Shown piece by piece: positions 1 through 19,477 of a stretch of 24,135 nt of DNA. A model generated the notes under the pieces. That model saw nothing but the letters and a program-made list of their open reading frames with translations, ran no database searches and had not been told where the DNA came from. Source of the DNA: a virus. Position 1 is the stretch's first letter; every line of letters starts with the position of its first letter. The DNA is taken from the IMG/VR virus record IMGVR_UViG_3300009826_001457, positions 74,654 through 98,788 of that record, one strand, 5' to 3'. The position numbers and the translations under genes are program-made.

Positions 1-36
1 AAACCAACGGCATTAACAAGCAGCTTGTAGAAAACG

Positions 37-59
37 GGGGAAGCGTGAACTGCTTCCCC
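37..59 (+). terminator. GC-rich stem-loop upstream of the ubiquitin-like gene (terminator-like or stabilising hairpin)
   Basis: GGGGAAGC (37-44) pairs perfectly with GCTTCCCC (52-59); follows a TAG at 28-30; no clear U-tract. Confidence 0.45.
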
Positions 60-87
60 ACTAATATTATCTCTTGGAAGGGGAATT

Positions 88-321
88 TTGATGATAAAAG
101 TTACTATGGGTACAACAGTAAAACGTGTTTCAGATGTCTTTGGTGCTGACACAACATTACGGTCAGCGTTAGACCAGCATGGAATCGACTATACCAGCGG
201 CACAATGCATCTCGACGGCTCACCCCTTGATGCCGATGACTTGGATAGAACTTTCGCAGACCACGGAATAATCGATAAGTGCTTCTTGCTTAACGTAGTT
301 AAGGCCGATAACGCGGCATGA
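88..321 (+). CDS. Ubiquitin-like (beta-grasp) small protein
   Basis: 77 aa; RBS GGAAGGGG; Ubl-like pattern (IKVTM...TTLRSAL...LDGSPL...LDRTFADHGI...LLNVVK); first gene before E2/JAB/E1-like genes; ends KADNAA, not GG. Confidence 0.7.
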   Translation: MMIKVTMGTTVKRVSDVFGADTTLRSALDQHGIDYTSGTMHLDGSPLDADDLDRTFADHGIIDKCFLLNVVKADNAA

Positions 322-341
322 AACCCTGAGGGATGCTAACG

Positions 342-368
342 GGGCAGTAAGCTTATTGTTTGCTGCCC
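342..368 (+). terminator. Stem-loop between the Ubl gene and the E2-like gene
   Basis: GGGCAGTAAGC (342-352) pairs with GTTTGCTGCCC (358-368), 11 bp with two G-U pairs. Confidence 0.45.
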
Positions 369-396
369 ACATATTCTACGGAAAGGGGGACTCATC

Positions 397-1848
397 ATGT
401 TCAAAAAAGGAATAAACCAGACAATTTTTACATCTGAAGCGGCTGACAGGTTATTTTCCAATATAACCGAACTGGACACTCCCGATAGATCATTTATTAC
501 AACCTTGCGGATATTACTACGCAATCGCTTGCCCAAAAATGAAACTATACGAATTAGTTGTGAGCGCATACAAACCACTGTCAATGGCATCATGTCTACA
601 TCTGCTTCAGAACGCATGTACCTGTTTTTGTACAATGCATCAAGATATTTAGATTCATCAGGATATAACATCCATATCATCTACACTGAGCATCCCGATG
701 CCGGCGAAAAAATGTTGGAAATTGCCAAAGCCAATGCCGGAGCAGGTAAATTGCATATAAGCGACTACACCCGCCGTGATGACTTACAGGTATTTTATGC
801 CCGTAAAGCAAAAGCCCTGTTTTTCACAAATGATGCAGCCAAAAAAGCAGTTATTTTTGCAAGTGCATTAGAGCCAAAACACTTCCATGCTTTGCAAATG
901 ATGATACCAAGGTACCTGCCGCACCTATTTGTTGATGCCCCCTTAACCGAATCAGAAATAAACTTACTTAAAAGCACAGGAAATAAATCTGCAAGTGAAT
1001 ATGAACAATTAATAGAAGAGTTCGCAAAGGATTTAGATTTTCGAGCAGAAAATATCCGCAGCAACTTGGCACGGTTTGAGACTTTATTCGAACGCGAAAG
1101 AGCTGCTGAACTTCGTCAGCAAATAACAGAGCATGAAAATACGTATAACCAACAACTCATCGCCCTGACCACAACATCCAACAAAATGGATGACTTGAAA
1201 TATACATTGGCAGGACTGGAGCTTGCCATTGATGGGCAATCCGAGGACTCAGAATTGATGGAGTACTTTATATGTAATAAGAACCTGGCGCTTATTAAAG
1301 TTGACGGTACATCCATCGTATTTGTAGTCCATGGCTATGCGAATAATTACGACGAAGATGCCTTCGAGCGATATGTGTCTAACCACAGCGGGTCTCTCTA
1401 TAAAGGTATTAATACTAACATATCAAAATCCCAGATGGAAAAACTGTATCTCGCAATATTCAGCGAGGGGAGATATAAATTACGTATGTGCGCGGCATAT
1501 AAAGCGGATATGCGAAGCGGGTTGTCTGCGATTAGTGGCTACTCATTCCCTCCCGAAAGCAAGTCGTACCTACCAAACCCACATATCCAGATCCATGGAT
1601 GCATTGGTGGTTACGCTATACGCTTTCAAGAATGTATGCAGAATAAGGATTATGTCGGCGCAATAAGCCAGGCGACAGGATCTGCGAGCAACCTAAACTT
1701 TCACGATTCGGGCGTTATTGCTAGATTCGCTGCGAACTTATTTTCAACATCAATAAAATGTATAGAAAGACCCGATGGCACGTTGCTTTCGCCGCATGAA
1801 GCAATTAACGAATTGGAAGGAGATACTGTGCTATGCCAAAGCCAATAA
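397..1848 (+). CDS. Large protein with central coiled coil and C-terminal putative prokaryotic E2-like domain
   Basis: 483 aa; RBS AAAGGGGG; heptad-rich segment ERERAAELRQQ...LAGLELAID; PNPHIQIHGCIGG resembles the E2 HPN/HI-x-G-x-C active-site motif; lies between Ubl and JAB genes. Confidence 0.6.
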   Translation: MFKKGINQTIFTSEAADRLFSNITELDTPDRSFITTLRILLRNRLPKNETIRISCERIQTTVNGIMSTSASERMYLFLYNASRYLDSSGYNIHIIYTEHPDAGEKMLEIAKANAGAGKLHISDYTRRDDLQVFYARKAKALFFTNDAAKKAVIFASALEPKHFHALQMMIPRYLPHLFVDAPLTESEINLLKSTGNKSASEYEQLIEEFAKDLDFRAENIRSNLARFETLFERERAAELRQQITEHENTYNQQLIALTTTSNKMDDLKYTLAGLELAIDGQSEDSELMEYFICNKNLALIKVDGTSIVFVVHGYANNYDEDAFERYVSNHSGSLYKGINTNISKSQMEKLYLAIFSEGRYKLRMCAAYKADMRSGLSAISGYSFPPESKSYLPNPHIQIHGCIGGYAIRFQECMQNKDYVGAISQATGSASNLNFHDSGVIARFAANLFSTSIKCIERPDGTLLSPHEAINELEGDTVLCQSQ

Positions 1849-2591
1849 CCATAACAAAGGAAGTTAGAAAGAAGGCCCTTGCCGATTTCACACAAATGCT
1901 TGACAGCATAAAAGTTTTTGACGGCACTTTTAAATATAACAAAAGCTATTGTTACGAGGTCGATAACGTCACTGTTTGCTACACGCAAGAAGCATACAGA
2001 AAAATCGTTGCCTTAGTAATGGAATTTGATACTGAGGTTGGCTGGCATGGCACCGCATCGCGTATCAACGATAACGAATACTTGATTGACGATATCTTAG
2101 TCTATCCTCAGGAAGTAACAGGCAGTACAGTAAAAACTGACCAGGCGAAATTTGAAAATTGGCTCTATGGGGAGCTTGACGATGACACCTTTAATAAAAT
2201 CCGTACACACGGACATTCTCATGTAAACATGGGCGTATCGCCCTCAAGTGTAGATGACACACACAGGCAGAAACTCGTTGACCAGTTAGAGGGAGATATG
2301 TTCTACATTTTCTCAATATGGAACAAATCCTTGCAGGCATACACGCTGGTTTACGATTTAAAGCGAAACCTACTATTCGACAATGATGAAATTGACGTTA
2401 AGATGCTCGGCAATGAAAGCACAAATGCGTTTTTGACAGATGCCAAGGAGAAAGTCCAAAAACCTACGTTTATGTCATATTCAGAAAAGTTTAAAGGGGC
2501 TAATCATCGAGCATTGGGAATGAACAAAGCAACAACAGCTACACACCGACATGCAGTAGGAATGGAAGGAGGCTATCCATGGGAGTTTTAG
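1833..2591 (+). CDS. JAB/MPN+ metallopeptidase (deubiquitinase-like)
   Basis: EVGWHG N-terminal Glu and HGHSHVNMGVSPSSVDD (HxH-x7-S-x2-D JAMM motif); RBS GGAAGGAG; overlaps the upstream gene by 16 nt. Confidence 0.88.
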   Translation: MPKPITITKEVRKKALADFTQMLDSIKVFDGTFKYNKSYCYEVDNVTVCYTQEAYRKIVALVMEFDTEVGWHGTASRINDNEYLIDDILVYPQEVTGSTVKTDQAKFENWLYGELDDDTFNKIRTHGHSHVNMGVSPSSVDDTHRQKLVDQLEGDMFYIFSIWNKSLQAYTLVYDLKRNLLFDNDEIDVKMLGNESTNAFLTDAKEKVQKPTFMSYSEKFKGANHRALGMNKATTATHRHAVGMEGGYPWEF

Positions 2592-3259
2592 ACTTGTCAA
2601 AAAGCTATACGTTTTTTAAACCGGAGGAAGTCAAGGAACGTATCCATATAATTGGCTGCGGCTCAGTAGGGTCTACCGTTGCAGAACTATTGGCAAGGTT
2701 CGGGCTTACAAAGCTCTCATTATATGACTTTGATATAGTTGAGCCTAAAAATCTGGCTAATCAGTTGTTCCGGCAGGAACATGTAGGCATGACAAAAACC
2801 CAGGCCCTTACTGATATGCTGTCAGAAATAAACCCGGAAATTACACATAATATCAAAACCTTTCCTAACGGCTATACAGGGCAGAGATTGTCGGGCTATG
2901 TTTTTTTATGTATCGACAATATTGACCTGCGGCGTGAGATCGCAACTACCAATAAAGATAATCTCTACATTAAGGCCATGTTCGATTTCAGAACTCGCCT
3001 AACCGATGCCCAGCACTATGCCGCTAAATGGGGCGATATGTCAATGGTTAAGGATTTTATTAAGACCATGAATTTCACCCACAAAGAAGCTGTGGCGGAA
3101 ACCCCGGTATCAGCCTGCAATGTCACATTGTCAGTAGCGCCCACAATTAGAGTGATATGTTCGTTAGGTGTGACCAACTTCGTCAACTTTGTCAAAGGTG
3201 AAAGCCTAAAAAAGATGATTTTAATGGATGCATTCAATTATATTCTGGATGTGTTCTAA
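2579..3259 (+). CDS. ThiF/MoeB family E1-like adenylyltransferase
   Basis: IIGCGSVGS nucleotide-binding motif and YDFDIVEPKNLANQ; candidate catalytic Cys in VSACN; no CxxC zinc pairs; RBS GGAGG; overlaps JAB by 13 nt. Confidence 0.92.
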   Translation: MGVLDLSKSYTFFKPEEVKERIHIIGCGSVGSTVAELLARFGLTKLSLYDFDIVEPKNLANQLFRQEHVGMTKTQALTDMLSEINPEITHNIKTFPNGYTGQRLSGYVFLCIDNIDLRREIATTNKDNLYIKAMFDFRTRLTDAQHYAAKWGDMSMVKDFIKTMNFTHKEAVAETPVSACNVTLSVAPTIRVICSLGVTNFVNFVKGESLKKMILMDAFNYILDVF

Positions 3260-3262
3260 ATA

Positions 3263-3565
3263 ACATGTCGCTTGCAATGGATAGCTTACGTAAGGTAAGT
3301 GCTTCGAGGTATAACCCGAAGTATTAAAAGGTTAGCAAGTGTAGAAGCCGGCCGCCAGGCACCTGGTCCACAAGTTCCATCGCATCGGTCGACTGAGCAA
3401 GGAGTTCAGCACAAAGGGAAAAGCAAAAACCCCTAATTTCTCCGGTTTCTCTTATGCCTTAAAGCCTGCTACAACCAAGCTTGTTAAACCAGAAAAGCTT
3501 GAGAAGAGCGAAACCTGACCTTCCAAGCCATTCTTCCAATGTGCAGATTTCAAGCGATACTATGT
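3263..3565 (+). ncRNA. Retron-like msr/msd cassette 1 (divergent)
   Basis: IR core TCGCTTG (3268-3274)/CAAGCGA (3551-3557); ATGG then hairpins GCTTAC/GTAAGT and GCTTCG-A-GGT-ATA-ACC-CGAAGT (3301-3322), ATTAAAA; TGCAGA before the 3' IR. Confidence 0.75.
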
Positions 3566-3580
3566 CTGAAAGGAAATAAT

Positions 3581-3757
3581 ATGGATGCTAATGTCTACAA
3601 GGTTGAATTGTTTTTCGCTGGTAATGAAGATGATGCTAAAAGCTTACGGAAACACTTGGCACAATCCATCTCGAATGAATTTGACTTGCCAAAGGTTTTT
3701 GGAGTTATTATTGCCTTAGATGAACAAAAAACTGAGAGACTGGAAAGGAGCGACTAA
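3581..3757 (+). CDS. Small hypothetical protein (58 aa) directly upstream of the RT
   Basis: ATG 3581 with RBS AAAGGA (the ORF-track start 3539 lies inside cassette 1); stop 2 nt before the RT ATG. Confidence 0.65.
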   Translation: MDANVYKVELFFAGNEDDAKSLRKHLAQSISNEFDLPKVFGVIIALDEQKTERLERSD

Positions 3758-3759
3758 CT

Positions 3760-4899
3760 ATGCCATATATCACAATTAAGCAACAGCCCACATATAAGCA
3801 AATGACTTTTGAAGAATCGCTTTTTGGTATAGACGATGTAAGCGATTTTATACAGTACAACGAAACTAACACCAGGACATATTGGGTAGAGCACCCAAGA
3901 CAAGAACTGATGGATAACACTGATGTTCCGGCAATGATTGGATTACTAAAGACTTTTAATGAGTCAAAAGATTCATTATTTGCCCAGGACAGGGTTTCTC
4001 TATACCGCTCCTTCAGCATTGCTAAAAAGACTGGGGGACTACGGCGCATTGATGCTCCAGAACCGGAGCTGATGTGCGCTCTGCGTGAATTAAAAATCAT
4101 ATTTGAAAATCATATGTTTGCCTTGTATCACACAACCGCGTTTGCATATATTCGCGGCCGTAGCACAATTGATGCTGTCAAGCGCCACCAAAGGAATAAG
4201 AGCAAGTGGTTTTTGAAACTTGACTTTGCCAATTTCTTTGGCAGTACTACACCGGCGTTTGTACTGGATATGCTATCACAGATATTTCCGTTTAGTGAGA
4301 TTGTAAAGTATCGTTCCGGTAAGGAGCAACTTGCCAAAGCCCTTAGCCTGTGCTTCCTTAACGGCGGGCTGCCCCAAGGAACACCCATCTCACCGTTCAT
4401 AACCAACGTAATGATGATTGCTGTTGACCATAAAATAAGTAACACCCTGCGGAATTTTGATAAAAACCGCTTTGTATACACCCGGTATGCCGACGATTTA
4501 CTTATTTCCAGCGAGTATGACTTTGATAAGAACGCAGTTGAAAAACATGTGATTGATATCTTGGCAGCGTTCAATGCTCCATTCAGCATAAAACGTGAAA
4601 AAACACGTTACGGTTCATCCGCTGGCCGCAACTGGAATCTGGGGGTAATGCTTAACAGTGATAACCAGATAACTATAGGACACAAACGCAAGAAACAGTT
4701 TAAAGCCATGCTCTGCAATTTCATGCGTGACAGAGACTCGGAAAACCGCTGGAGCCGCGAAGATATACAGATACTCAACGGTCTTATATCCTATTATCGC
4801 ATGGTTGAGGCGGAAAACATTGACTATATTATTACGAAGTGCGGAGAGAAATATGGTAATGATGTAAGGCTATGTATTAAAGCGGATTTATCCGCATAG
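3760..4899 (+). CDS. Retron-like reverse transcriptase
   Basis: 379 aa; KKTGGLRRIDAP, AFAYIRGRS, DAVKRH (retron NAxxH position), LKLDFANFF, LPQGTPISP, YTRYADD, NLGV (retron VTG position); no maturase or endonuclease extension. Confidence 0.92.
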   Translation: MPYITIKQQPTYKQMTFEESLFGIDDVSDFIQYNETNTRTYWVEHPRQELMDNTDVPAMIGLLKTFNESKDSLFAQDRVSLYRSFSIAKKTGGLRRIDAPEPELMCALRELKIIFENHMFALYHTTAFAYIRGRSTIDAVKRHQRNKSKWFLKLDFANFFGSTTPAFVLDMLSQIFPFSEIVKYRSGKEQLAKALSLCFLNGGLPQGTPISPFITNVMMIAVDHKISNTLRNFDKNRFVYTRYADDLLISSEYDFDKNAVEKHVIDILAAFNAPFSIKREKTRYGSSAGRNWNLGVMLNSDNQITIGHKRKKQFKAMLCNFMRDRDSENRWSREDIQILNGLISYYRMVEAENIDYIITKCGEKYGNDVRLCIKADLSA

Positions 4900-4901
4900 A
4901 A

Positions 4902-5197
4902 AACTTTTGTAATGTAATGGTTTGTTGTAAAACAAACGCTTCATGCGTTTCGCTGGAGTATCAAAACGTAAGTGAGTGAGACAGAGGACCAGGGCACCCC
5001 CGTCGCTGAGTACGACGACATCGCTGGGTTTGAGCAGCTTGTTTTATTAATCGGAAGCCAGTTAGAATCAAGGTTTTCGTAATCAACTCAAGACTTGAAC
5101 AAAAGTTTCGAGTTTAAGAACCCAGAGCCACCGCAGCTCCGCCCGACTGAACCCAGTCATCCTATGGCTCACCGTTGCCACGCAGATTACAAAAGTT
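4902..5197 (+). ncRNA. Retron-like msr/msd cassette 2 (divergent)
   Basis: Perfect 12-bp IR AACTTTTGTAAT (4902-4913)/ATTACAAAAGTT (5186-5197); hairpins GTTTGT/ACAAAC and GCTTCA-T-GCG-TTT-CGC-TGGAGT (4938-4959); CGCAGA before the 3' IR. Confidence 0.78.
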
Positions 5198-5202
5198 AGA
5201 AA

Positions 5203-5494
5203 ATTCACATTTACATTGTATAACCCTATCTTTGATAAGGTGCTTTGTGGTTTTACCCAAAGTATTAAAATGCTAGAAAGTGAGAGACACCGCAGCCGCT
5301 GCCTGCACAGTAGAAAGACCTGCGCCCGGGGTCATCACCTATATTATTTAGGGAATCAGCTTATCACTTTTCCTTGAAGTATATAGTTTTCTGTGATTTC
5401 GATGAGATGATTATAAACATCTGACTCTTGTGAAGCTGAAGTGCTGAATTCCTCCTTTGGGAAGTTCTCTCTAATGTAGATTGTAGATGTGAAT
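5203..5494 (+). ncRNA. Retron-like msr/msd cassette 3
   Basis: IR ATTCACATTTACA (5203-5215)/TGTAGATGTGAAT (5482-5494); conserved ~65-nt head shared with cassettes 4-8. Confidence 0.8.
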
Positions 5495-5580
5495 CAATAA
5501 TGAAGAATAAAATATTATGAACGCTATCACCTTGGCGATAAATGTTAATGACTATGCAAAATTACCGGGGAGGAAACAAC

Positions 5581-6009
5581 ATGAAAAAAGTAACAATATT
5601 CACTGATGGTGCATGTACGGGCAATCCGGGCCCCGGTGGATACAGTGTCATATTAATGTACGAAGGCCACCGCAAGGAATTATCAGGCGGTGAAGAGTTA
5701 ACTACAAATAATCGGATGGAACTTATGGGCGCTATTAAGGGGCTAGAAGCGCTTAAAGAGCCTTGCGAGGTAGATGTCTACTCAGACTCACGATATGTCG
5801 TTGATGCCGTTAATAAAGGATGGGCTATAGGTTGGAAGAAAAATGGTTGGCGGCGAAAAAAAGGAGACGCTAAAAATCATGACCTGTGGGAAATCCTTTT
5901 GAAGCTCCTTGAAAAGCATAAAGCAGTTTTTCGATGGATTAAAGGCCACTCTGGTCATCCTATAAACGAACGCTGTGACGAATTGGCAAGAGCTGCAATA
6001 CCCTGCTAA
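5581..6009 (+). CDS. rnhA: Ribonuclease HI
   Basis: FTDGACTGNPGPGG, TNNRMEL, YSDSRY, WIKGHSGHPINERCDELA; all four acidic catalytic residues present; ATG 5581 with RBS GGGGAGGA. Confidence 0.96.
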   Translation: MKKVTIFTDGACTGNPGPGGYSVILMYEGHRKELSGGEELTTNNRMELMGAIKGLEALKEPCEVDVYSDSRYVVDAVNKGWAIGWKKNGWRRKKGDAKNHDLWEILLKLLEKHKAVFRWIKGHSGHPINERCDELARAAIPC

Positions 6010-6010
6010 A

Positions 6011-6313
6011 TCACATTTACATTGGATAACTCCATCAATTGATAGAGTGCTTTGTGGTTTTACCCAAAGTTTTAAAATGTCAGCAAGTGAAGGACCCTTG
6101 CGCCTTCCGGCGTGCGAGCCCGCGGAAAGATTTTTCCTGATGATTTAGGATGCAGATACAAATCAATTCTTAGTCAACGCCGCCTTTTTTATTAAGTTTT
6201 ACCATCCTTTTTCCACAGGTAACAAAGCCTAATCGACATTAACATCTTCCCCCGCGTCGAGTCTTCTCTCCTCCAGTCGGATTAGCTTTTTCATATGTAG
6301 ATTGTAGATGTGA
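6011..6313 (+). ncRNA. Retron-like msr/msd cassette 4
   Basis: IR TCACATTTACA (6011-6021)/TGTAGATGTGA (6303-6313); conserved head; separated from the rnhA stop by 1 nt. Confidence 0.8.
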
Positions 6314-6404
6314 GTTTAAACATAACATTGCTTATGATTATTTTTTTACCCAAAGCAGAGTGATTCAACGAGGTGAGTTAAAAAGGAACGCAACCCTATT
6401 ATGA

Positions 6405-6714
6405 TACATTTACATTGGATAACTTTGTCACTTGATAAAGTGCTTTGTGGTTTAACCCAAAGTTTTAAATCGTTAGATTGAGATACTGGAAGGCGACGAT
6501 CAGGAGGCGCCGGCCGCAGTGGCGACCAAGATTCTGAGGTTCGGTTTTCCTCATCATCAATTCTGATGTACGGAAGCAAACCAGTGGAGTTTTCAAGGTT
6601 TCTTGCCATTCTTACTTTCACACAACCATGGCTTTCTCCCCGAAGCGCTCCTCGCCGGTGCGCGCGACAAAGCTCCAGCTCAGGTGGTTCCTTCTCTTGT
6701 AGATTGTAAATGTA
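6405..6714 (+). ncRNA. Retron-like msr/msd cassette 5
   Basis: Perfect IR TACATTTACA (6405-6414)/TGTAAATGTA (6705-6714), with a compensatory C-G to T-A change relative to the other cassettes; conserved head. Confidence 0.8.
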
Positions 6715-6826
6715 CTTTTTCAAGAAACATACTTGAACTTTCTAAGAAACAAAAAGAAATAAATATAGCAAACACCCAGGAAATGAACATATGGGGTGTC
6801 AGACGAAACAACACTACTACATTAAA

Positions 6827-7115
6827 TCACATTTACTTTGGATAACTTTATCTATTGATAAAGTGCTTTGTGGTTTTACCCAAAGTATTCAAACGATAGG
6901 AAGGTGGGAGACTCACCGGTCATGAGCAGGTCACCTGCTTTAGGCAACCCGGGTCGATTAACCGAGGTGAAGACATCAAATGTTCCTTTGTTTTCTGGAC
7001 TTTGCCTATCACCCAAAACACATTCCCGACAAAGATTTTGCGAGGGACTCATCTCCTCTCAGGAAGAAGGCGGCTTCAGAGTGGCAAACAACTTCCCTGT
7101 AGATTGCAAATGTGA
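6827..7115 (+). ncRNA. Retron-like msr/msd cassette 6
   Basis: IR TCACATTTAC (6827-6836)/GCAAATGTGA (7106-7115), one mismatch; conserved head with perfect ACTTTATC/GATAAAGT hairpin. Confidence 0.8.
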
Positions 7116-7247
7116 GCAAGAATGCAACTTAATGTGGTTACGGTATAAAAATGTAATTATAGGACTATCAAGTTTAATGATGGAGTTAGCATGAGCACAC
7201 ATAAACTATGATTAAAGTACAGGATTAAAAGCAGTTATGTTACAAAA

Positions 7248-7532
7248 CACATTTACTTTGGATAACTTTGTCGTTGATAAAGTGCTTTGCGGTTTAACCC
7301 AAAGTTTTAAAACGTCAGGTGGGGGCGAGAAGCAGCGTCTCCTCATCCCATGGCTGGGTAAGATCTGCACCGTCTGGAACCGAGCACTTCTGAAACCCAG
7401 GCCCTAAAAATCCCTGATGTTTACTAAGCTACAGTCTTAGTATCCTTAACCACCACAGGAATGGCACTTGAGTCCGATGCAGTGTCCCCTGCCTTTCCAG
7501 CGCGTGTTTCTCCCCTGTAGACTGTAAATGTG
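7248..7532 (+). ncRNA. Retron-like msr/msd cassette 7
   Basis: IR CACATTTAC (7248-7256)/GTAAATGTG (7524-7532); conserved head; TGTAGA motif. Confidence 0.8.
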
Positions 7533-7596
7533 AATCATAAAATTAACACATATGCACATGAACAAAATTGTTGCTTCATCCAAAGGAGACGATAAA

Positions 7597-8058
7597 TTGA
7601 AGGAACTACATTATATTGGAACTGGTAGATTTGATAGACCAGCTTACAAAGACGGCGATGGCAACATATGGTTAGACATAAGTGAAGGTAGTGGCAAACC
7701 AGATTTGCATAAGTCAGCGGATAACGAGTTGGATGGTGAGCCGGATTACCGAATTGACTGCGATTATATTATTGCTACCCCCGCACCGGAAGAAAATCCA
7801 TACGCACATGACTATTCGATGCTAGACCGACTTAAATCAGACTGCAACTACTATCTCGGCTATGGCAACAGACATCCCAGTAGATTAATTGACAACAGCG
7901 TAGCCACCCACATCGAAGAAATGAGACGTAGATGGAACGCCTTCCCAGAGGATGCAAAACCCGAATGGCTGACGATGGAAGACATAAATAAATATGAAAA
8001 AGAAATGTTGTTTGGAACAGGCAATATATACATTAATGGGTGGTCAACAGTTGAATAA
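7597..8058 (+). CDS. Protein with C-terminal LPD11-like (large polyvalent protein-associated) domain
   Basis: YSMLDRLKSDCNYYLGYGNR...W...PEDAKPEWLTMEDINKYEKEM matches the LPD11 pattern as I recall it; probable TTG start 7597 after AAAGGAG (ORF track starts 7552). Confidence 0.7.
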   Translation: MKELHYIGTGRFDRPAYKDGDGNIWLDISEGSGKPDLHKSADNELDGEPDYRIDCDYIIATPAPEENPYAHDYSMLDRLKSDCNYYLGYGNRHPSRLIDNSVATHIEEMRRRWNAFPEDAKPEWLTMEDINKYEKEMLFGTGNIYINGWSTVE

Positions 8059-8143
8059 CCTGTTTTGGTATGAATGAATTAAGAACTTCGAAGATATAAA
8101 GGCATTTAACTAAACGATTGCGTTATAAAGGAGTGCATCGCAA

Positions 8144-8452
8144 ATGATACCCACAACCTATATTTACATTCTAAAGCGTTCAAATGGGTTCTACGGAGTT
8201 TATGTAAACGGAAAGCAACAGGAACATCTTAAAACGAATTCCCCGCTTAGTATGCCTGCCAAATATCTGATAGATAAAGTGCTACATGAAATGAAAAAGA
8301 TTGTTGGCCCAATTACTATATTGTTTACTGATGATGAGTCGGAATTTCAAAATGACTTGCCTAAACTTGAAGACATTGTTTGAAAGGCAATATCAGCATA
8401 CCCCGAAAGCAAACACTGCAATGAATTGGCTGAAGAAGCCGTACCATATTAA
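8144..8452 (+). pseudogene. ORF interrupted by an in-frame TGA (8381-8383) whose continuation resembles the RNase H C-terminus
   Basis: RBS AAAGGAG; after the TGA the frame reads KAISAYPESKHCNELAEEAVPY*, versus rnhA [22 protein letters not shown]; same TAA-A-TCACATT junction to the next cassette. Confidence 0.55.
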
Positions 8453-8453
8453 A

Positions 8454-8730
8454 TCACATTTACTTTGGATAACTTTATCTATTGATAAGGTGCTTTGCGG
8501 TTTTACCCAAAGTTTCAAAAAGTCAGCGAGTGGAACACGCCGTAGCTATGGCCACGGTCCTGGAAATCCGGATACATGAAGGAACGACAGGTGTGGAATA
8601 ATCCTCAGAAACCTTAGTTTCCACCTTTTCGTCTTTCTCGCCGACAGCCCAAATCCTAGTGCAGTAGAATGCCGGTAAGCTTCAGAACACTACGGCATCT
8701 CTGGCTTGCTCATGCAGAAGGCAAATGTGA
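8454..8730 (+). ncRNA. Retron-like msr/msd cassette 8
   Basis: IR TCACATTTAC (8454-8463)/GCAAATGTGA (8721-8730); conserved head; TGCAGA motif. Confidence 0.78.
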
Positions 8731-8772
8731 ATCAGTAAATATTACTTGAAAATGTGAACAAGGAGTGAACTC

Positions 8773-9054
8773 ATGGAAAATTATATTTTACAATTCAATT
8801 TTGAAACGGGAGATACACCGCCATGTGCATATCACCAAGTCTATGTCGTGGTGAAAAGCCAAGGCTACCCGGACTTCGAGAGCCTTGAAGATTCCATTAT
8901 ATCTTACTTTGAAAGCAACTTTGACAGCAACAATGATAAAGATTTGGAGTATAAAGACAATGTTGAGGACATTATGCGGGAATCGGGCATGAACTGGGAG
9001 TTTGCACGAGGCTCATTCCCAGAAAGTAAAGCAATACATTCTTTATGGATATAG
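8773..9054 (+). CDS. Hypothetical acidic protein
   Basis: 93 aa ORF with RBS AAGGAG. Confidence 0.75.
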   Translation: MENYILQFNFETGDTPPCAYHQVYVVVKSQGYPDFESLEDSIISYFESNFDSNNDKDLEYKDNVEDIMRESGMNWEFARGSFPESKAIHSLWI

Positions 9055-9083
9055 TGAATTAGCGATTCTATTTAAGAGGAGAT

Positions 9084-9548
9084 ATGCACATGATTAAATA
9101 TGTTGCCACGGTGTTCTTTATGGGCATTGGTAATGAAATTATTAATATTAACGCAGCAAACTATGATGCGGCGTTTAAGCTGCTATTTAATTATTATCTT
9201 GATAAGGGCGACCGCTTGGGACATTGGCTAGATGACAACGGTGAAAACGCCGGTGACTTTAACGATATAGATGGTCAGTACGAGGACGAGCATGGTTGGA
9301 GTTGGCATATTGAAGAAGCGGCTAAAATTAAGACAATTGGCGAAGTAAACATACGTAAAGAAATATTCTGTGGATGGACGACAGCAGATGCAATGAGCAA
9401 GTATCCGACACTTACTGAGGCTCAGGCATACGAGATTATGTCATTCGTTGACAAGCACAAGGATTATGACCAGGGAGTTACATGGGACAGCATCAAGTAT
9501 GCAATGGAAACCCTGTACCCGAATTTAATTAATAAACAGCACCAATGA
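9084..9548 (+). CDS. Hypothetical protein
   Basis: 154 aa ORF with RBS GAGGAG; start may be 9090. Confidence 0.75.
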   Translation: MHMIKYVATVFFMGIGNEIININAANYDAAFKLLFNYYLDKGDRLGHWLDDNGENAGDFNDIDGQYEDEHGWSWHIEEAAKIKTIGEVNIRKEIFCGWTTADAMSKYPTLTEAQAYEIMSFVDKHKDYDQGVTWDSIKYAMETLYPNLINKQHQ

Positions 9549-11605: not shown

Positions 11606-12469
11606 GTGGCACAAACGACTGTTTATGAAATGGTGACGCAGCGTATTATTGAACAGCTTGAAAAAGGTATAATCCCCTGGCACAAGCCCTGGGTAGGCAA
11701 TTCTGCTATAAACTATAAGACTCGTAAACCGTACAGGGGTATTAATCCCATACTTCTGCCTGAAGGCGGAGAATACTTATCTTTCCTTCAGTGCAAAGAG
11801 CTTGGCGGGAATGTTAAGCGTGGTGAAAAAGGACATATGATTGTCTTCTATAAAACATTGCAAGTGGAAGACGAGAATAATCTCGGAGAACAAAAAGATA
11901 TTCCCTTTTTGAGATATTCAAAAGTCTTTCATATAACCCAATGTGAGGGGATTGAATCGAAGACACCTCCCCTTAATGTAAATCCTGATATTGTTCCCAT
12001 TGAAAAAGCACAGACTATCGTAGACAGTTACTGTAAGCGTGTCGGGGTTAAAGTGAGGCATGTTTTAGGCAGTGACCGAGCTTATTATGCTCTAGGGTCT
12101 GATGAAATTACACTGCCGGATATCTGTCAGTTTACATGTGCATACGAATATGCAAGCACATCCTTTCACGAGGCTGCACATTCAACAGGACACCGCTCCC
12201 GCTTAAACAGAAAGGTCGGCGCATCATCTTTCGGGAGTCATGTGTACAGCAAAGAAGAATTATGTGCCGAAATTGCAAGTGTAATGTTAATGAATAAAAC
12301 CGGCATAGAGTTGCCAGAGACGTTTGATAACAGTGCGGCTTATATAGGAAGTTGGCTGAAGAAACTAAAGAACGATAAAACATTTATCATAGCTGCCAGC
12401 AGTCAGGCTCAAAAAGCTGCCGACATGATTCTTGGAGTTAGCGCCAGTGAATCAAATGCTGCGGCATAA
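11606..12469 (+). CDS. ardC: ArdC-family ssDNA-binding antirestriction protein with zincin-like domain
   Basis: VTQRIIEQLEKGIIPWHKPW, YRGIN, GGNVKRGEKG, HEAAHSTGH, YSKEELCAE, AAYIGSW. Confidence 0.9.
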   Translation: MAQTTVYEMVTQRIIEQLEKGIIPWHKPWVGNSAINYKTRKPYRGINPILLPEGGEYLSFLQCKELGGNVKRGEKGHMIVFYKTLQVEDENNLGEQKDIPFLRYSKVFHITQCEGIESKTPPLNVNPDIVPIEKAQTIVDSYCKRVGVKVRHVLGSDRAYYALGSDEITLPDICQFTCAYEYASTSFHEAAHSTGHRSRLNRKVGASSFGSHVYSKEELCAEIASVMLMNKTGIELPETFDNSAAYIGSWLKKLKNDKTFIIAASSQAQKAADMILGVSASESNAAA

Positions 12470-17416: not shown

Positions 17417-19477
17417 ATGTCTACGGATACATTACTAAAAAGGACACGAGTACGCAAACTGGTGGCTGAGCTTAACCGCCACCGGCACCTTTACTACAAC
17501 GAAAATACCCCTGAGATATCAGATGCCGTATACGATAGCATGGTTGATGAACTCGCCGCATTAGAACGAGAAACGGGATTGATTTTATCGTCATCGCCTA
17601 CTCAAAGTGTAGGCGCGCCTATTGTAAGCTCACTCGCAATCGTTCAACATAACATACCACTCCTGTCACTGGATAAAACTAAAACTCCGGTAGAGGTAAT
17701 TGAGTTTATAGGAAACAGAGTAGCGCTGTTTATGCTTAAGTTAGATGGCCTAACAACCAAGCTTGAATATTCGGATGGCGAACTCATCAGAGCATCAACC
17801 CGAGGCGATGGAAGCGAAGGCGAAGATATAACCCACAACGCCCGTGTTTTCATGGATGTGCCTTTGAAGATACCGCACAAGGGCTATCTCTGTATTTCGG
17901 GTGAATCGTATATCTCAAACGATGATTTTATATATCTACAGGCTAATACAGTCGGCAAAGATAATAAACCCTACAAAAATGCCCGCAATCTGGCCGCAGG
18001 TTCAGTACGTCAACTTGACGCTAGGGAATGTTCTAAGCGGCGCATCCGGTTCAGCGCGTTTAATGTCCTGGATGGAAAATCGTTGGAAGGCGTAGAGTAT
18101 AACGATAATTCAAGTGAAACCCCTGCAATGATACCAGTTGACACCAATAGTAAGAGTTCAATGCTTAGCTATTTAAACCAAATTGGCTTTAATGTAGCAC
18201 ACTTCCACAAGATAGACGGCGATAATAACAATGCCATTCCCCATGCTATAGAAAGTTTACAGGTATATGCAAAGAAACACGGCATCCCAATAGATGGCCT
18301 TGTTGCGACCTACGATGACGTTGAATATAGTAAATCATTAGGCCGCACAGGACACCATTATCGAGACGGGCTTGCTTTCAAGTTTGAAGATGGCGCGATA
18401 GAAACTATCTTAACAAATGTTGAGTGGAATGTATCGCGTTCCGGCGAACTAACCCCCGTGGCAATCTTTGAAACAGTCAAATTAGATGGCACTGATGTTT
18501 CACGAGCATCGTTGCATAACTTAAACTTTTTACAAGAGCTGAACTTAAAAATTAGGGACAGGATTATGGTTAGCAAGCGCAACCTAATTATCCCTCATGT
18601 GGAAGAAAATCTCGACATTGATAAGCCACCGGCTTTTGATGCACAAGCCCTTATCCCAAGCACATGCCCATGCTGTGATAATCCACTTAACACAGTACTT
18701 AATAACGATGGAGACCCATCATTGTTCTGCGATAATCCCATGTGCTTTGACCGTAAACTAAGGCAGTATGAACACTTTGCCTGCAAAAAAGCTATGAACA
18801 TCAACGGCCTTTCTACCGCTGCGCTTGCAAAATTTATGATAGCGGGCCTACTTAACAACAAAGTTGATATCTACTCTTTATGCAATCATAAGGCCACAAT
18901 TGTAAGCATGGACGGTTATGGTGCTAAGGCTTTTAGTAAGCTCATTGAAGCTATAGAAAAAAGCCGCACAACCACTATGGAGCGATTTCTTATCGCGATG
19001 GACATTCCCATGGTTGGCCGCCATGCAAGTGCGATCTTGTGCCAGGCATTTAATTATGACTTAAGTGCTATCAAAGTTGCCGCACTAGGAAACTATGACT
19101 TCACAGTGTTACAAGACTTTGGCGACATCCTTCACGATAATATCCGATCTTGGTTCCAATCAGAATGTAATCTTATACAATGGGAGGAGATTATAAACCT
19201 TATGGACTTCAAAACAGCAAGTACGCGACCGGCGGGAGCCAGTGATAACCCATTCGCCGGCAAGACTATCGTTGCCACAGGCAGTTTCGTACACTACACC
19301 CGCGACACAATAAACGAACAAATACTAACACTTGGGGCAAAGCCAGGGAGTAGTGTTTCAAAGAAGACGGATTATCTTATCGTCGGAGACAAGGCCGGAA
19401 GTAAGAAAATAAAAGCAGAACAGCTCGGTGTTCCAACCCTCACGGAAGAAGAGTTCAGAGAAATGGCTGGAGTGTAA
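17417..19477 (+). CDS. ligA: NAD-dependent DNA ligase
   Basis: YY...PEISDAVYD, LLSLDK, KLDG adenylation motif, TRGDG.EGEDIT, NARNLAAGSVRQ, OB fold, CPCC...C....C zinc finger, HhH region, C-terminal BRCT (SVSKKTDYLIVG). Confidence 0.97.
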   Translation: MSTDTLLKRTRVRKLVAELNRHRHLYYNENTPEISDAVYDSMVDELAALERETGLILSSSPTQSVGAPIVSSLAIVQHNIPLLSLDKTKTPVEVIEFIGNRVALFMLKLDGLTTKLEYSDGELIRASTRGDGSEGEDITHNARVFMDVPLKIPHKGYLCISGESYISNDDFIYLQANTVGKDNKPYKNARNLAAGSVRQLDARECSKRRIRFSAFNVLDGKSLEGVEYNDNSSETPAMIPVDTNSKSSMLSYLNQIGFNVAHFHKIDGDNNNAIPHAIESLQVYAKKHGIPIDGLVATYDDVEYSKSLGRTGHHYRDGLAFKFEDGAIETILTNVEWNVSRSGELTPVAIFETVKLDGTDVSRASLHNLNFLQELNLKIRDRIMVSKRNLIIPHVEENLDIDKPPAFDAQALIPSTCPCCDNPLNTVLNNDGDPSLFCDNPMCFDRKLRQYEHFACKKAMNINGLSTAALAKFMIAGLLNNKVDIYSLCNHKATIVSMDGYGAKAFSKLIEAIEKSRTTTMERFLIAMDIPMVGRHASAILCQAFNYDLSAIKVAALGNYDFTVLQDFGDILHDNIRSWFQSECNLIQWEEIINLMDFKTASTRPAGASDNPFAGKTIVATGSFVHYTRDTINEQILTLGAKPGSSVSKKTDYLIVGDKAGSKKIKAEQLGVPTLTEEEFREMAGV

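Follow-up and report, generated by a model that had tools for sequence, protein, structure and literature searches.

The partners of known retrons are nucleases, NTPases, proteases, TIR domains and the like, and bacterial ubiquitin-like protein (Ubl) cascades have been described either as independent defence systems or in a regulatory role in CBASS. Tripartite retrons consist of a reverse transcriptase (RT), an msr-msd non-coding RNA (ncRNA) and an accessory effector, and fall into 13 types (Mestre et al. 2020, PMC7736814). Among Ubl systems, Bil employs a multidomain E1 with an inactive adenylation domain, an active adenylation domain and a Cys domain (Chambers et al., bioRxiv 10.1101/2023.09.26.559546), and Bub proceeds through oxyester intermediates with an E1 that has no catalytic Cys (Ye et al., bioRxiv 10.1101/2024.11.21.623953). 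Here we analyse a 24,135-nt stretch of viral DNA, hereafter the window, that makes up the last 24 kb of an IMG/VR virus record, 98.8 kb in length and classified as a provirus (IMGVR_UViG_3300009826_001457, positions 74,654 to 98,788). In it, genes for a putative Ubl, a 483-aa protein with an E2-like C-terminal domain, a JAB/JAMM metalloprotease and a minimal ThiF-type E1 (together, the kit) run directly into a retron-like ncRNA cassette, a small open reading frame (ORF) and a retron-type RT (Table 1). Comparison of homologous loci makes it a well supported conclusion that the kit and the RT form a single functional unit, because the modules always co-occur, keep a fixed order and often abut at a stop codon. 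The block appears to represent both a new class of retron partner and a new minimal Ubl system.

Like a tripartite retron, the block has a retron-clade RT with a YADD motif, a structured RNA with terminal inverted repeats upstream of it and accessory genes in the same operon. Unlike one, its accessory module is a five-gene Ubl cascade, it has eight template cassettes rather than one and an RNase H of its own, its carriers are a phage lineage of 100–140 kb, and its RT falls below the cut-off of the St85 model (184 vs 235 bits). The PADLOC retron effector models matched none of the block's proteins, and the accessory genes fit none of the 13 types. Mestre et al. (PMC7736814) make no mention of ThiF, ubiquitin, JAB or adenylyltransferase, and in full-text searches of the available literature library no paper connected ThiF, JAB or Ubl genes with retrons or other reverse transcriptases.

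The kit was also compared with the described Ubl systems. It shares with BilABCD (bioRxiv 10.1101/2023.09.26.559546; Hor et al., bioRxiv 10.1101/2023.09.04.556158) the roles of Ubl, E2, JAB deubiquitinase (DUB) and E1, as well as Ubl tails with variable extensions for JAB trimming, and a Bil E2 (8tyz_C) is among the fold matches of the E2-like domain. The kit's E1, in contrast, is a single 226-aa domain without the inactive adenylation domain or the separate Cys domain, its E2-like domain is the tail of a larger protein, and its mature Ubl end is mostly Ala rather than Gly. Moreover, the kit is phage-borne, has no sequence-level match to Bil and comes with an RT, a link on which Chambers et al. 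(bioRxiv 10.1101/2023.09.26.559546) are silent. The likeness to Cap2/Cap3 of type II CBASS lies in the Rossmann core of the E1 superfamily (PADLOC E1-E2 model, 7e-19, covering residues 19-94 only), in the JAB partner and in the notion of a conjugation kit that serves a nucleotide-polymerising enzyme. Here, by contrast, E1 and E2 are separate proteins, a separate Ubl is present and the enzyme served would be the RT; the CD-NTase models of PADLOC matched nothing in the block. As in Bub, a Ubl fusion precursor would be cut by the operon's own peptidase, the fusions here joining Ubl to the neighbouring gene X, whereas the kit differs from Bub in the invariant Cys of both its E1 (C180) and its E2-like domain (C402). 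Finally, the PRTRC cassette (ParB-related, ThiF-related; TIGR03735-03742) resembles the kit in combining a small ThiF-type E1 with E2-, JAB- and Ubl-like partners on a mobile element. The kit's match to TIGR03736 (PRTRC_ThiF), however, reaches 26.6 bits where the cut-off demands 144.75, the other PRTRC models gave no match and no ParB was found. Judged by these comparisons of sequence, the kit is not a member of Bil, type II CBASS Cap2/Cap3, PRTRC or Bub.

All block genes lie on the + strand, with the Ubl, E2-like, JAB and ThiF genes contiguous and followed by cassette 1, the small ORF and the RT. The first-pass annotation, made from the letters of this DNA, had described the last three kit genes as overlapping, and indeed the JAB start overlaps the end of the 483-aa ORF by 16 nt and the ThiF start overlaps the JAB gene by 13 nt. 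It had also put the start of cassette 1 just past the ThiF stop, at a distance of 3 nt, with no terminator in between, which our searches bear out with a spacing of 2 nt. A covariance model trained on the 5′ portions of all eight cassettes in the window matches at 3261-3349 (74 bits, E 6e-13), 2 nt past the ThiF stop (which ends at 3259), and a search for terminator-like sites on the + strand of window positions 1-9167 returned none. With the same model, cassette 2 falls at 4896, on the stop codon of the RT. When ORF ends were compared with covariance-model matches in relatives, the first cassette was found to start no more than 10 nt from the E1 stop in 20 of 24 loci, including the deposited human-gut phage contig MT835544.1; in 14 loci a further cassette begins at most 5 nt from the RT stop. 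Where extra ORFs lie between E1 and RT, the cassette remains beside the RT.

We then asked of each half how often it is accompanied by the other. A search with the E2-like protein yielded 80 metagenome loci. Of these, 30 extend 1.3 kb or more beyond E1, and the RT was present in all but two of them (28); in the two loci without it, E1 is truncated too. A search with the RT yielded 80 viral and 9 close genome loci. Far from co-occurring rarely, which is what the first-pass annotation had said would speak against a link, the Ubl, E2-like, JAB and E1 genes lie directly upstream on the same strand in 73 of the 75 RT-centred loci that have at least 5.5 kb of upstream sequence. The two exceptions are L154, where a 5.9-kb insertion separates E1 from RT (2148-8001), and L095, which is truncated. 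As controls, none of 71 ordinary retron RTs (at most 37% identity) is accompanied by the kit, nor are the RTs of jumbo phages of Staphylococcus and Listeria, which share 24% identity. The block is kept down to 22–31% identity in the E2-like protein and 37–45% in the RT, and MT835544.1 has the same block at 23–50% identity. The E2-like domain was found in 6 of 399 Clostridia genomes sampled, and the whole block was present in both of those opened, including G266, the most divergent strong match. Altogether, neither half has been lost in more than 150 loci spanning 22–100% identity.

The block also changes place as a unit relative to the NAD-dependent DNA ligase gene, which lies 0.1–3 kb upstream of X in termite-gut relatives and 12.5 kb downstream of the RT in the window. 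Flanking genes vary among loci and the block stays together. Smaller genes move within it. An RNase H gene is found 3′ of the RT in the window (5542-6009), in the gap between Ubl and E2-like genes in L114, L116 and L128, and in the gap between E1 and RT in L173. The sole detected homologue of the small ORF lies between the Ubl and E2-like genes of L033 (2768-2932).

The RT matches RVT_1 (1.3e-17), the PADLOC model RT_II-A (1.3e-50) and 80 retron- or DRT-type models in all, as well as the NCBIfam model of the St85 retron RT (2.7e-54, below its cut-off as noted above). By these profiles it is a member of the retron clade, nearest to type II-A / St85, and its catalytic YADD is intact at residues 243-246. 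Cassette 1 is a structured ncRNA immediately upstream of the RT, closed by terminal inverted repeats as in the a1/a2 of retrons; its terminal stem pairs ~3266-3276 with ~3549-3558 in both minimum-free-energy and centroid folds (z −2.55). In many relatives, too, the covariance model locates a cassette 5′ of the RT. The small ORF before the RT, which the first-pass annotation had noticed, is present, and it probably starts not at the listed 3539 but at ATG 3582, behind AAAGGAAA, since the end pairing of cassette 1 reaches into the listed start. This ORF may be translationally coupled to the RT.

At its C-terminus, the RT carries a nearly invariant K-x-D-L, followed by variable extensions in some relatives. 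The RT end I-K-A-D-L-S-A (4876-4899) bears a loose likeness to the Ubl end V-K-A-D-N-A-A (298-321), a likeness that is loose outside the termite-gut clade. The possibility that the RT is itself a direct E1 substrate by virtue of a Ubl-like tail was considered and is weakened by the many relatives that end in K-x-D-L-R. The RNase H of L114 (3056-3706) carries an N-terminal hybrid-binding domain of the RNase H1 type.

The E1 is the best defined protein of the kit by family match (Pfam PF00899, 9.2e-26), and its nearest solved relatives are UBA5, MoeB, TcdA, MccB, PaaA and Cap2. It has the features of its superfamily in one domain of 226 aa, namely a nucleotide-binding GxGxxG, an Asp for Mg (D113) and a conserved Cys (C180). 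Across 35 homologues, G26xG28xxG31, N58, N61, Q62, K73, D113, R118 and C180 are invariant. Profile matches to JAB are weak (PADLOC 0.008; Prok-JAB in 4 of 28 homologues) and a profile search of the Protein Data Bank (PDB) gave nothing significant, whereas the JAMM motif itself, E68...H128-x-H130-x7-S138-x2-D141, is invariant in 28 diverse homologues down to 35% identity.

The 483-aa protein has no match in Pfam, PHROGs, NCBIfam, PADLOC or PDB sequences. Its full-length structure model (pLDDT 82) consists of an N-terminal alpha/beta domain (residues ~1-210, nt 397-1026), a 65-residue helix (215-280) and a C-terminal UBC/E2-like alpha/beta domain (283-483, nt 1243-1848). The N-terminal domain is modelled confidently and has no recognisable relative, including in a structure atlas look-up; the long helix suggests that the modelled protein may form a dimer. 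Residues 283-483, modelled alone with 54 diverse homologues, reach a pLDDT of 91.5. When this domain was submitted to a VIA wide search, E2, RWD or UEV domains took almost all of the first 50 places, with middling Z of 4.2–7.0; they include Ubc9 (Z 5.7) and 8tyz_C, the E2 of a bacterial E1-E2-Ubl complex (Z 5.3). The same search with the full model was swamped by the long helix, and a BFVD search matched solely an uncharacterised homologue from a gut siphovirus. The topology of the C-terminal domain (helix, two strands, insert, two strands, loop, short helix, three helices) fits that of an E2, and in the model C402 sits where the catalytic Cys would be expected, after an HPN-type motif and between strand 4 and helix 2. 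In the motif P-N-P-H396 ... C402, residues H396 and C402, together with N434, are invariant in 54 sequences down to 24% identity. Because the predicted topology fits an E2 and these residues are invariant, 'E2-like' seems a fair name for residues 283-483; the first-pass annotation had given it to the whole gene, and for the remainder of the protein it does not hold. With more than 2,300 clusters at 50% identity (2,340) and no name in the libraries, the family is abundant in gut viromes yet unstudied.

The listed Ubl ORF (77 aa) starts at a TTG (88). We place the start at ATG 91 as the likely one; this codon lies behind GGAAGGGG, and homologues begin MIKV. No family matched the protein, and a PDB profile search gave non-significant beta-grasp matches alone (E 0.5–0.9); it is thus a putative Ubl, identified by size, position and tail pattern. 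In the alignment of homologues, the tail ...V-V-K-A-D-N-A-A has an invariant K72 and a nearly invariant D74. Most relatives have K-A-D-N-A and some K-A-D-G-A or K-x-D-G-G, with GG variants in L003, L155 and L157. What follows the tail is a stop, 1–3 variable residues or a fused protein of ~130 aa. This pattern looks like that of precursors trimmed by the operon's own peptidase; DUB-processed Ubl precursors with such tails have been reported for Bil (bioRxiv 10.1101/2023.09.26.559546) and Bub (bioRxiv 10.1101/2024.11.21.623953).

The fused protein is encoded by gene X, the sixth conserved gene of the block (window −396..2; G000:C1:74257-74655; L245:7604-8002). X lies directly 5′ of the Ubl gene in 99 loci (tblastn). 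It lies 3′ of it instead in L127, L131, L136/L137 and L148, where it is fused in frame right after K-A-D-N-A-A, an arrangement that predicts JAB cleavage after that tail. X has no relative in Pfam, PHROGs or PDB, a structure atlas look-up gave no useful match, and a Pfam scan of 34 X homologues returned scattered chance matches and no Whirly match. That X might be a second Ubl was ruled out (hhalign probability 0.5%). Because conserved X is directly upstream of the Ubl gene, the operon starts outside the window: it begins 5′ of it, with X. The stretch would be the core of one phage operon comprising X, Ubl, E2-like, JAB, E1, template RNA and RT, followed by further template RNAs and RNase H, all presumably transcribed together.

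We propose the following mechanism. The four kit proteins would form a minimal thioester-type ubiquitin-like cascade, as suggested by a Cys that is invariant in E1 and in the E2-like domain, the invariant JAMM motif and the precursor-type Ubl tail. JAB would trim the Ubl precursor to ...K-A-D-N-A, the 226-aa E1 would adenylate the trimmed end and load it on C180, and the Ubl would then be handed to C402 of the UBC-like domain. Targets might be chosen by the N-terminal domain and coiled coil of the 483-aa protein, or by X. The kit would be transcribed together with the RT and its RNAs and act in the same pathway. By analogy with tripartite retrons, complexes of RT with its multicopy single-stranded DNA (msDNA) would most likely sense or control, and the response would consist of attaching the Ubl to proteins. 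The data establish what the genes are, by motif or fold, as well as their constant linkage and their abutting ends; co-transcription, the sequence of steps in the cascade, which part controls which, the targets and the beneficiary (host or phage) are inferred.

These parts of the proposal are not equally firm. That the kit and the RT act in one pathway is in our judgement highly probable, because neither half is lost, no room is left for intergenic signals, accessory genes hop between the halves and the block travels as a unit. That RT-msDNA senses or controls and Ubl tagging is the output is a reading we hold tentatively, and would put a little short of an even chance. The first-pass annotation had called ubiquitin-like conjugation the 'effector or regulator' of the RT; the single functional unit within that statement stands, and a role for conjugation as effector or regulator may reasonably be presumed from how retron accessory genes have been interpreted (PMC7736814), with control conceivably running either way.

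Several observations weigh against this picture. Promoter scans 5′ of X and of Ubl found no + strand promoter. Foldseek searches against PDB, with both the full 483-aa model and its C-terminal domain, returned no match at E <=0.001, and the modelled E2-like fold has a middling match at best (Z 5–7). In many relatives, unrelated ORFs lie between E1 and RT or between JAB and E1. Furthermore, five diverse carriers (four of them 97–100% complete, 133–140 kb) have a terminase 47–53% identical to that of the window's phage, and a further relative with a 52%-identical terminase also has the RT. By this marker all carriers tested are one old phage lineage, and the co-occurrence counts are therefore not independent events; the association may reflect one ancestral event followed by vertical descent. 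One unrelated gene family lying upstream (cluster 7) accompanies the block in every one of 25 loci, so that synteny alone can give perfect co-occurrence in this lineage. A terminase search for members of the lineage without the block returned fragments and one 84-kb record, which has the RT, and the ligase, used as a lineage marker, found no relatives. Retention throughout the lineage is also unlike the patchy distribution typical of accessory defence systems. The first-pass annotation had proposed a use in superinfection exclusion or counter-defence. Given that the block is kept across the lineage and has early genes for DNA metabolism and anti-restriction as its neighbours, a role in the phage's own biology is no less likely than one as an accessory defence island.

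The single lineage, the equally constant cluster 7 and the insertions that part E1 from RT in many loci are what would be expected if the Ubl kit and a multi-template retron-like element were two independent modules, chance neighbours co-inherited by descent. We consider this distinctly unlikely, given that neither half has dropped out in more than 150 loci at 22–100% identity, that a cassette at the E1 stop codon leaves no room for an intergenic promoter or terminator, that RNase H and the small ORF hop between the halves, and that the flanking genes change around a block that stays together. Linkage is equally good evidence for a single unit in which control runs in reverse, the Ubl cascade regulating the RT machinery, for instance by tagging or untagging RT, X or RT-msDNA, with the eight DNAs as output. 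Cap2 and Cap3, which prime and reset the cyclase in type II CBASS, would be the model for such control. Scans with hidden Markov model libraries recognised no other toxin-type effector in the block, eight different templates with a dedicated RNase H suggest that the DNA products themselves matter, and the K-x-D-L tail of the RT, with its variable extensions, in the termite-gut clade (K-A-D-L-S-A) loosely resembles K-A-D-N-A-A. The Arg that ends the RT in many relatives, however, is a poor fit for adenylation by E1, and other proteins look the likelier targets of tagging, since the Ubl is a strongly conserved protein of its own and the E2-like protein has a large additional domain; we regard reverse control, the main rival, as unlikely, at perhaps one chance in four.

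The chemistry of the kit allows a further departure, in which the acceptor that E1 and the E2-like protein load with Ubl or X is no protein but a nucleic acid or other product of the RT, or in which they adenylate for a different purpose, as MccB or TcdA do. The E1 is a bare adenylation domain whose nearest solved relatives include the non-Ubl enzymes MccB, TcdA and PaaA, and the Ubl, which owes its identity to a sequence pattern, ends in Ala and not Gly. Against this stands a signature of protein conjugation, comprising an invariant Cys in E1 and in the UBC-like domain, a JAMM protease and precursor-type or GG tails, and we judge non-protein chemistry very improbable. A more far-reaching reading, which we rate as a long shot, is nucleic-acid-programmed Ubl tagging. 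The eight reverse-transcribed DNAs held by the RT would then be separate baits or sensors, the N-terminal domain of the E2-like protein or X would read the state of the DNA, and the bound protein or complex would receive the Ubl. If so, a set of DNA templates would direct a single conjugation kit to many targets.

If the union of kit and RT is fixed, it would add a new type both to the retrons and to the prokaryotic Ubl systems, tying reverse transcription to protein tagging through a kit built from protein families named in no library. The predicted activity of a minimal 226-aa E1 on an Ala-ended Ubl would widen the known limits of E1-E2 chemistry. Since the block is phage-borne and kept throughout a deep lineage, one may also ask whether retron-like RNAs and Ubl tagging are put to use by phages for purposes of their own.

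Table 1. Coordinates of the block, its neighbours and the Ubl-X fusions of relatives (window positions unless a locus is named).
Feature	Position	Strand	Remarks
Gene X, 3′ end	1..2	+	132 aa; sixth conserved gene of the block
G+C-rich hairpin, 8 pairs	37..59		between X and Ubl
Ubl precursor	91..321 (listed ORF 88-321)	+	76 aa from ATG 91
483-aa protein, E2-like C-terminal domain	397..1848	+	
JAB/JAMM metalloprotease	1833..2591	+	252 aa
Minimal E1, single ThiF-type adenylation domain	2579..3259	+	226 aa
Retron-like ncRNA cassette 1	3261..3558	+	abuts E1 stop codon
Small ORF	3582..3757	+	58 aa from probable ATG 3582; 3 nt 5′ of RT start
Retron-type reverse transcriptase	3760..4899	+	379 aa, YADD intact
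Seven more cassettes	4896..8738	+	first begins at RT stop codon
RNase HI	5542-6009	+	among the seven downstream cassettes
Anti-restriction-type protein	11606-12469	+	phrog_7245, 7e-70; 3′ of block
NAD-dependent DNA ligase	17417-19477	+	phrog_3869, 7e-158; 3′ of block
Ubl-X head-to-tail fusions	L127:3064-3606, L131:3063-3674, L136:2732-3346, L148:3926-4540		like ubiquitin fusion precursors

The genes of the window form a series on the + strand that includes, besides the block, the anti-restriction-type protein, the ligase and RNase HI, and the remainder of the record encodes on the opposite strand a large terminase, a portal and a giant tape-measure gene. Searches of the window found no tRNA and no Rfam family, and megablast found no near match among deposited phage records. 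Two unnamed ORF families are often inserted in the block of relatives, cluster 6 in the gap between JAB and E1 and the weakly DUF6273-like cluster 10 in the gap between E1 and RT; examples of inserted ORFs are L086:6378-6977, L088:6830-7639 and L004:12083-12910, and copies of cluster 6 also occur 3′ of the RT. Since the strong hairpin at 37-59 lacks a T-run on the + strand, it does not qualify as an intrinsic terminator of the operon; processing or attenuation could take place there.

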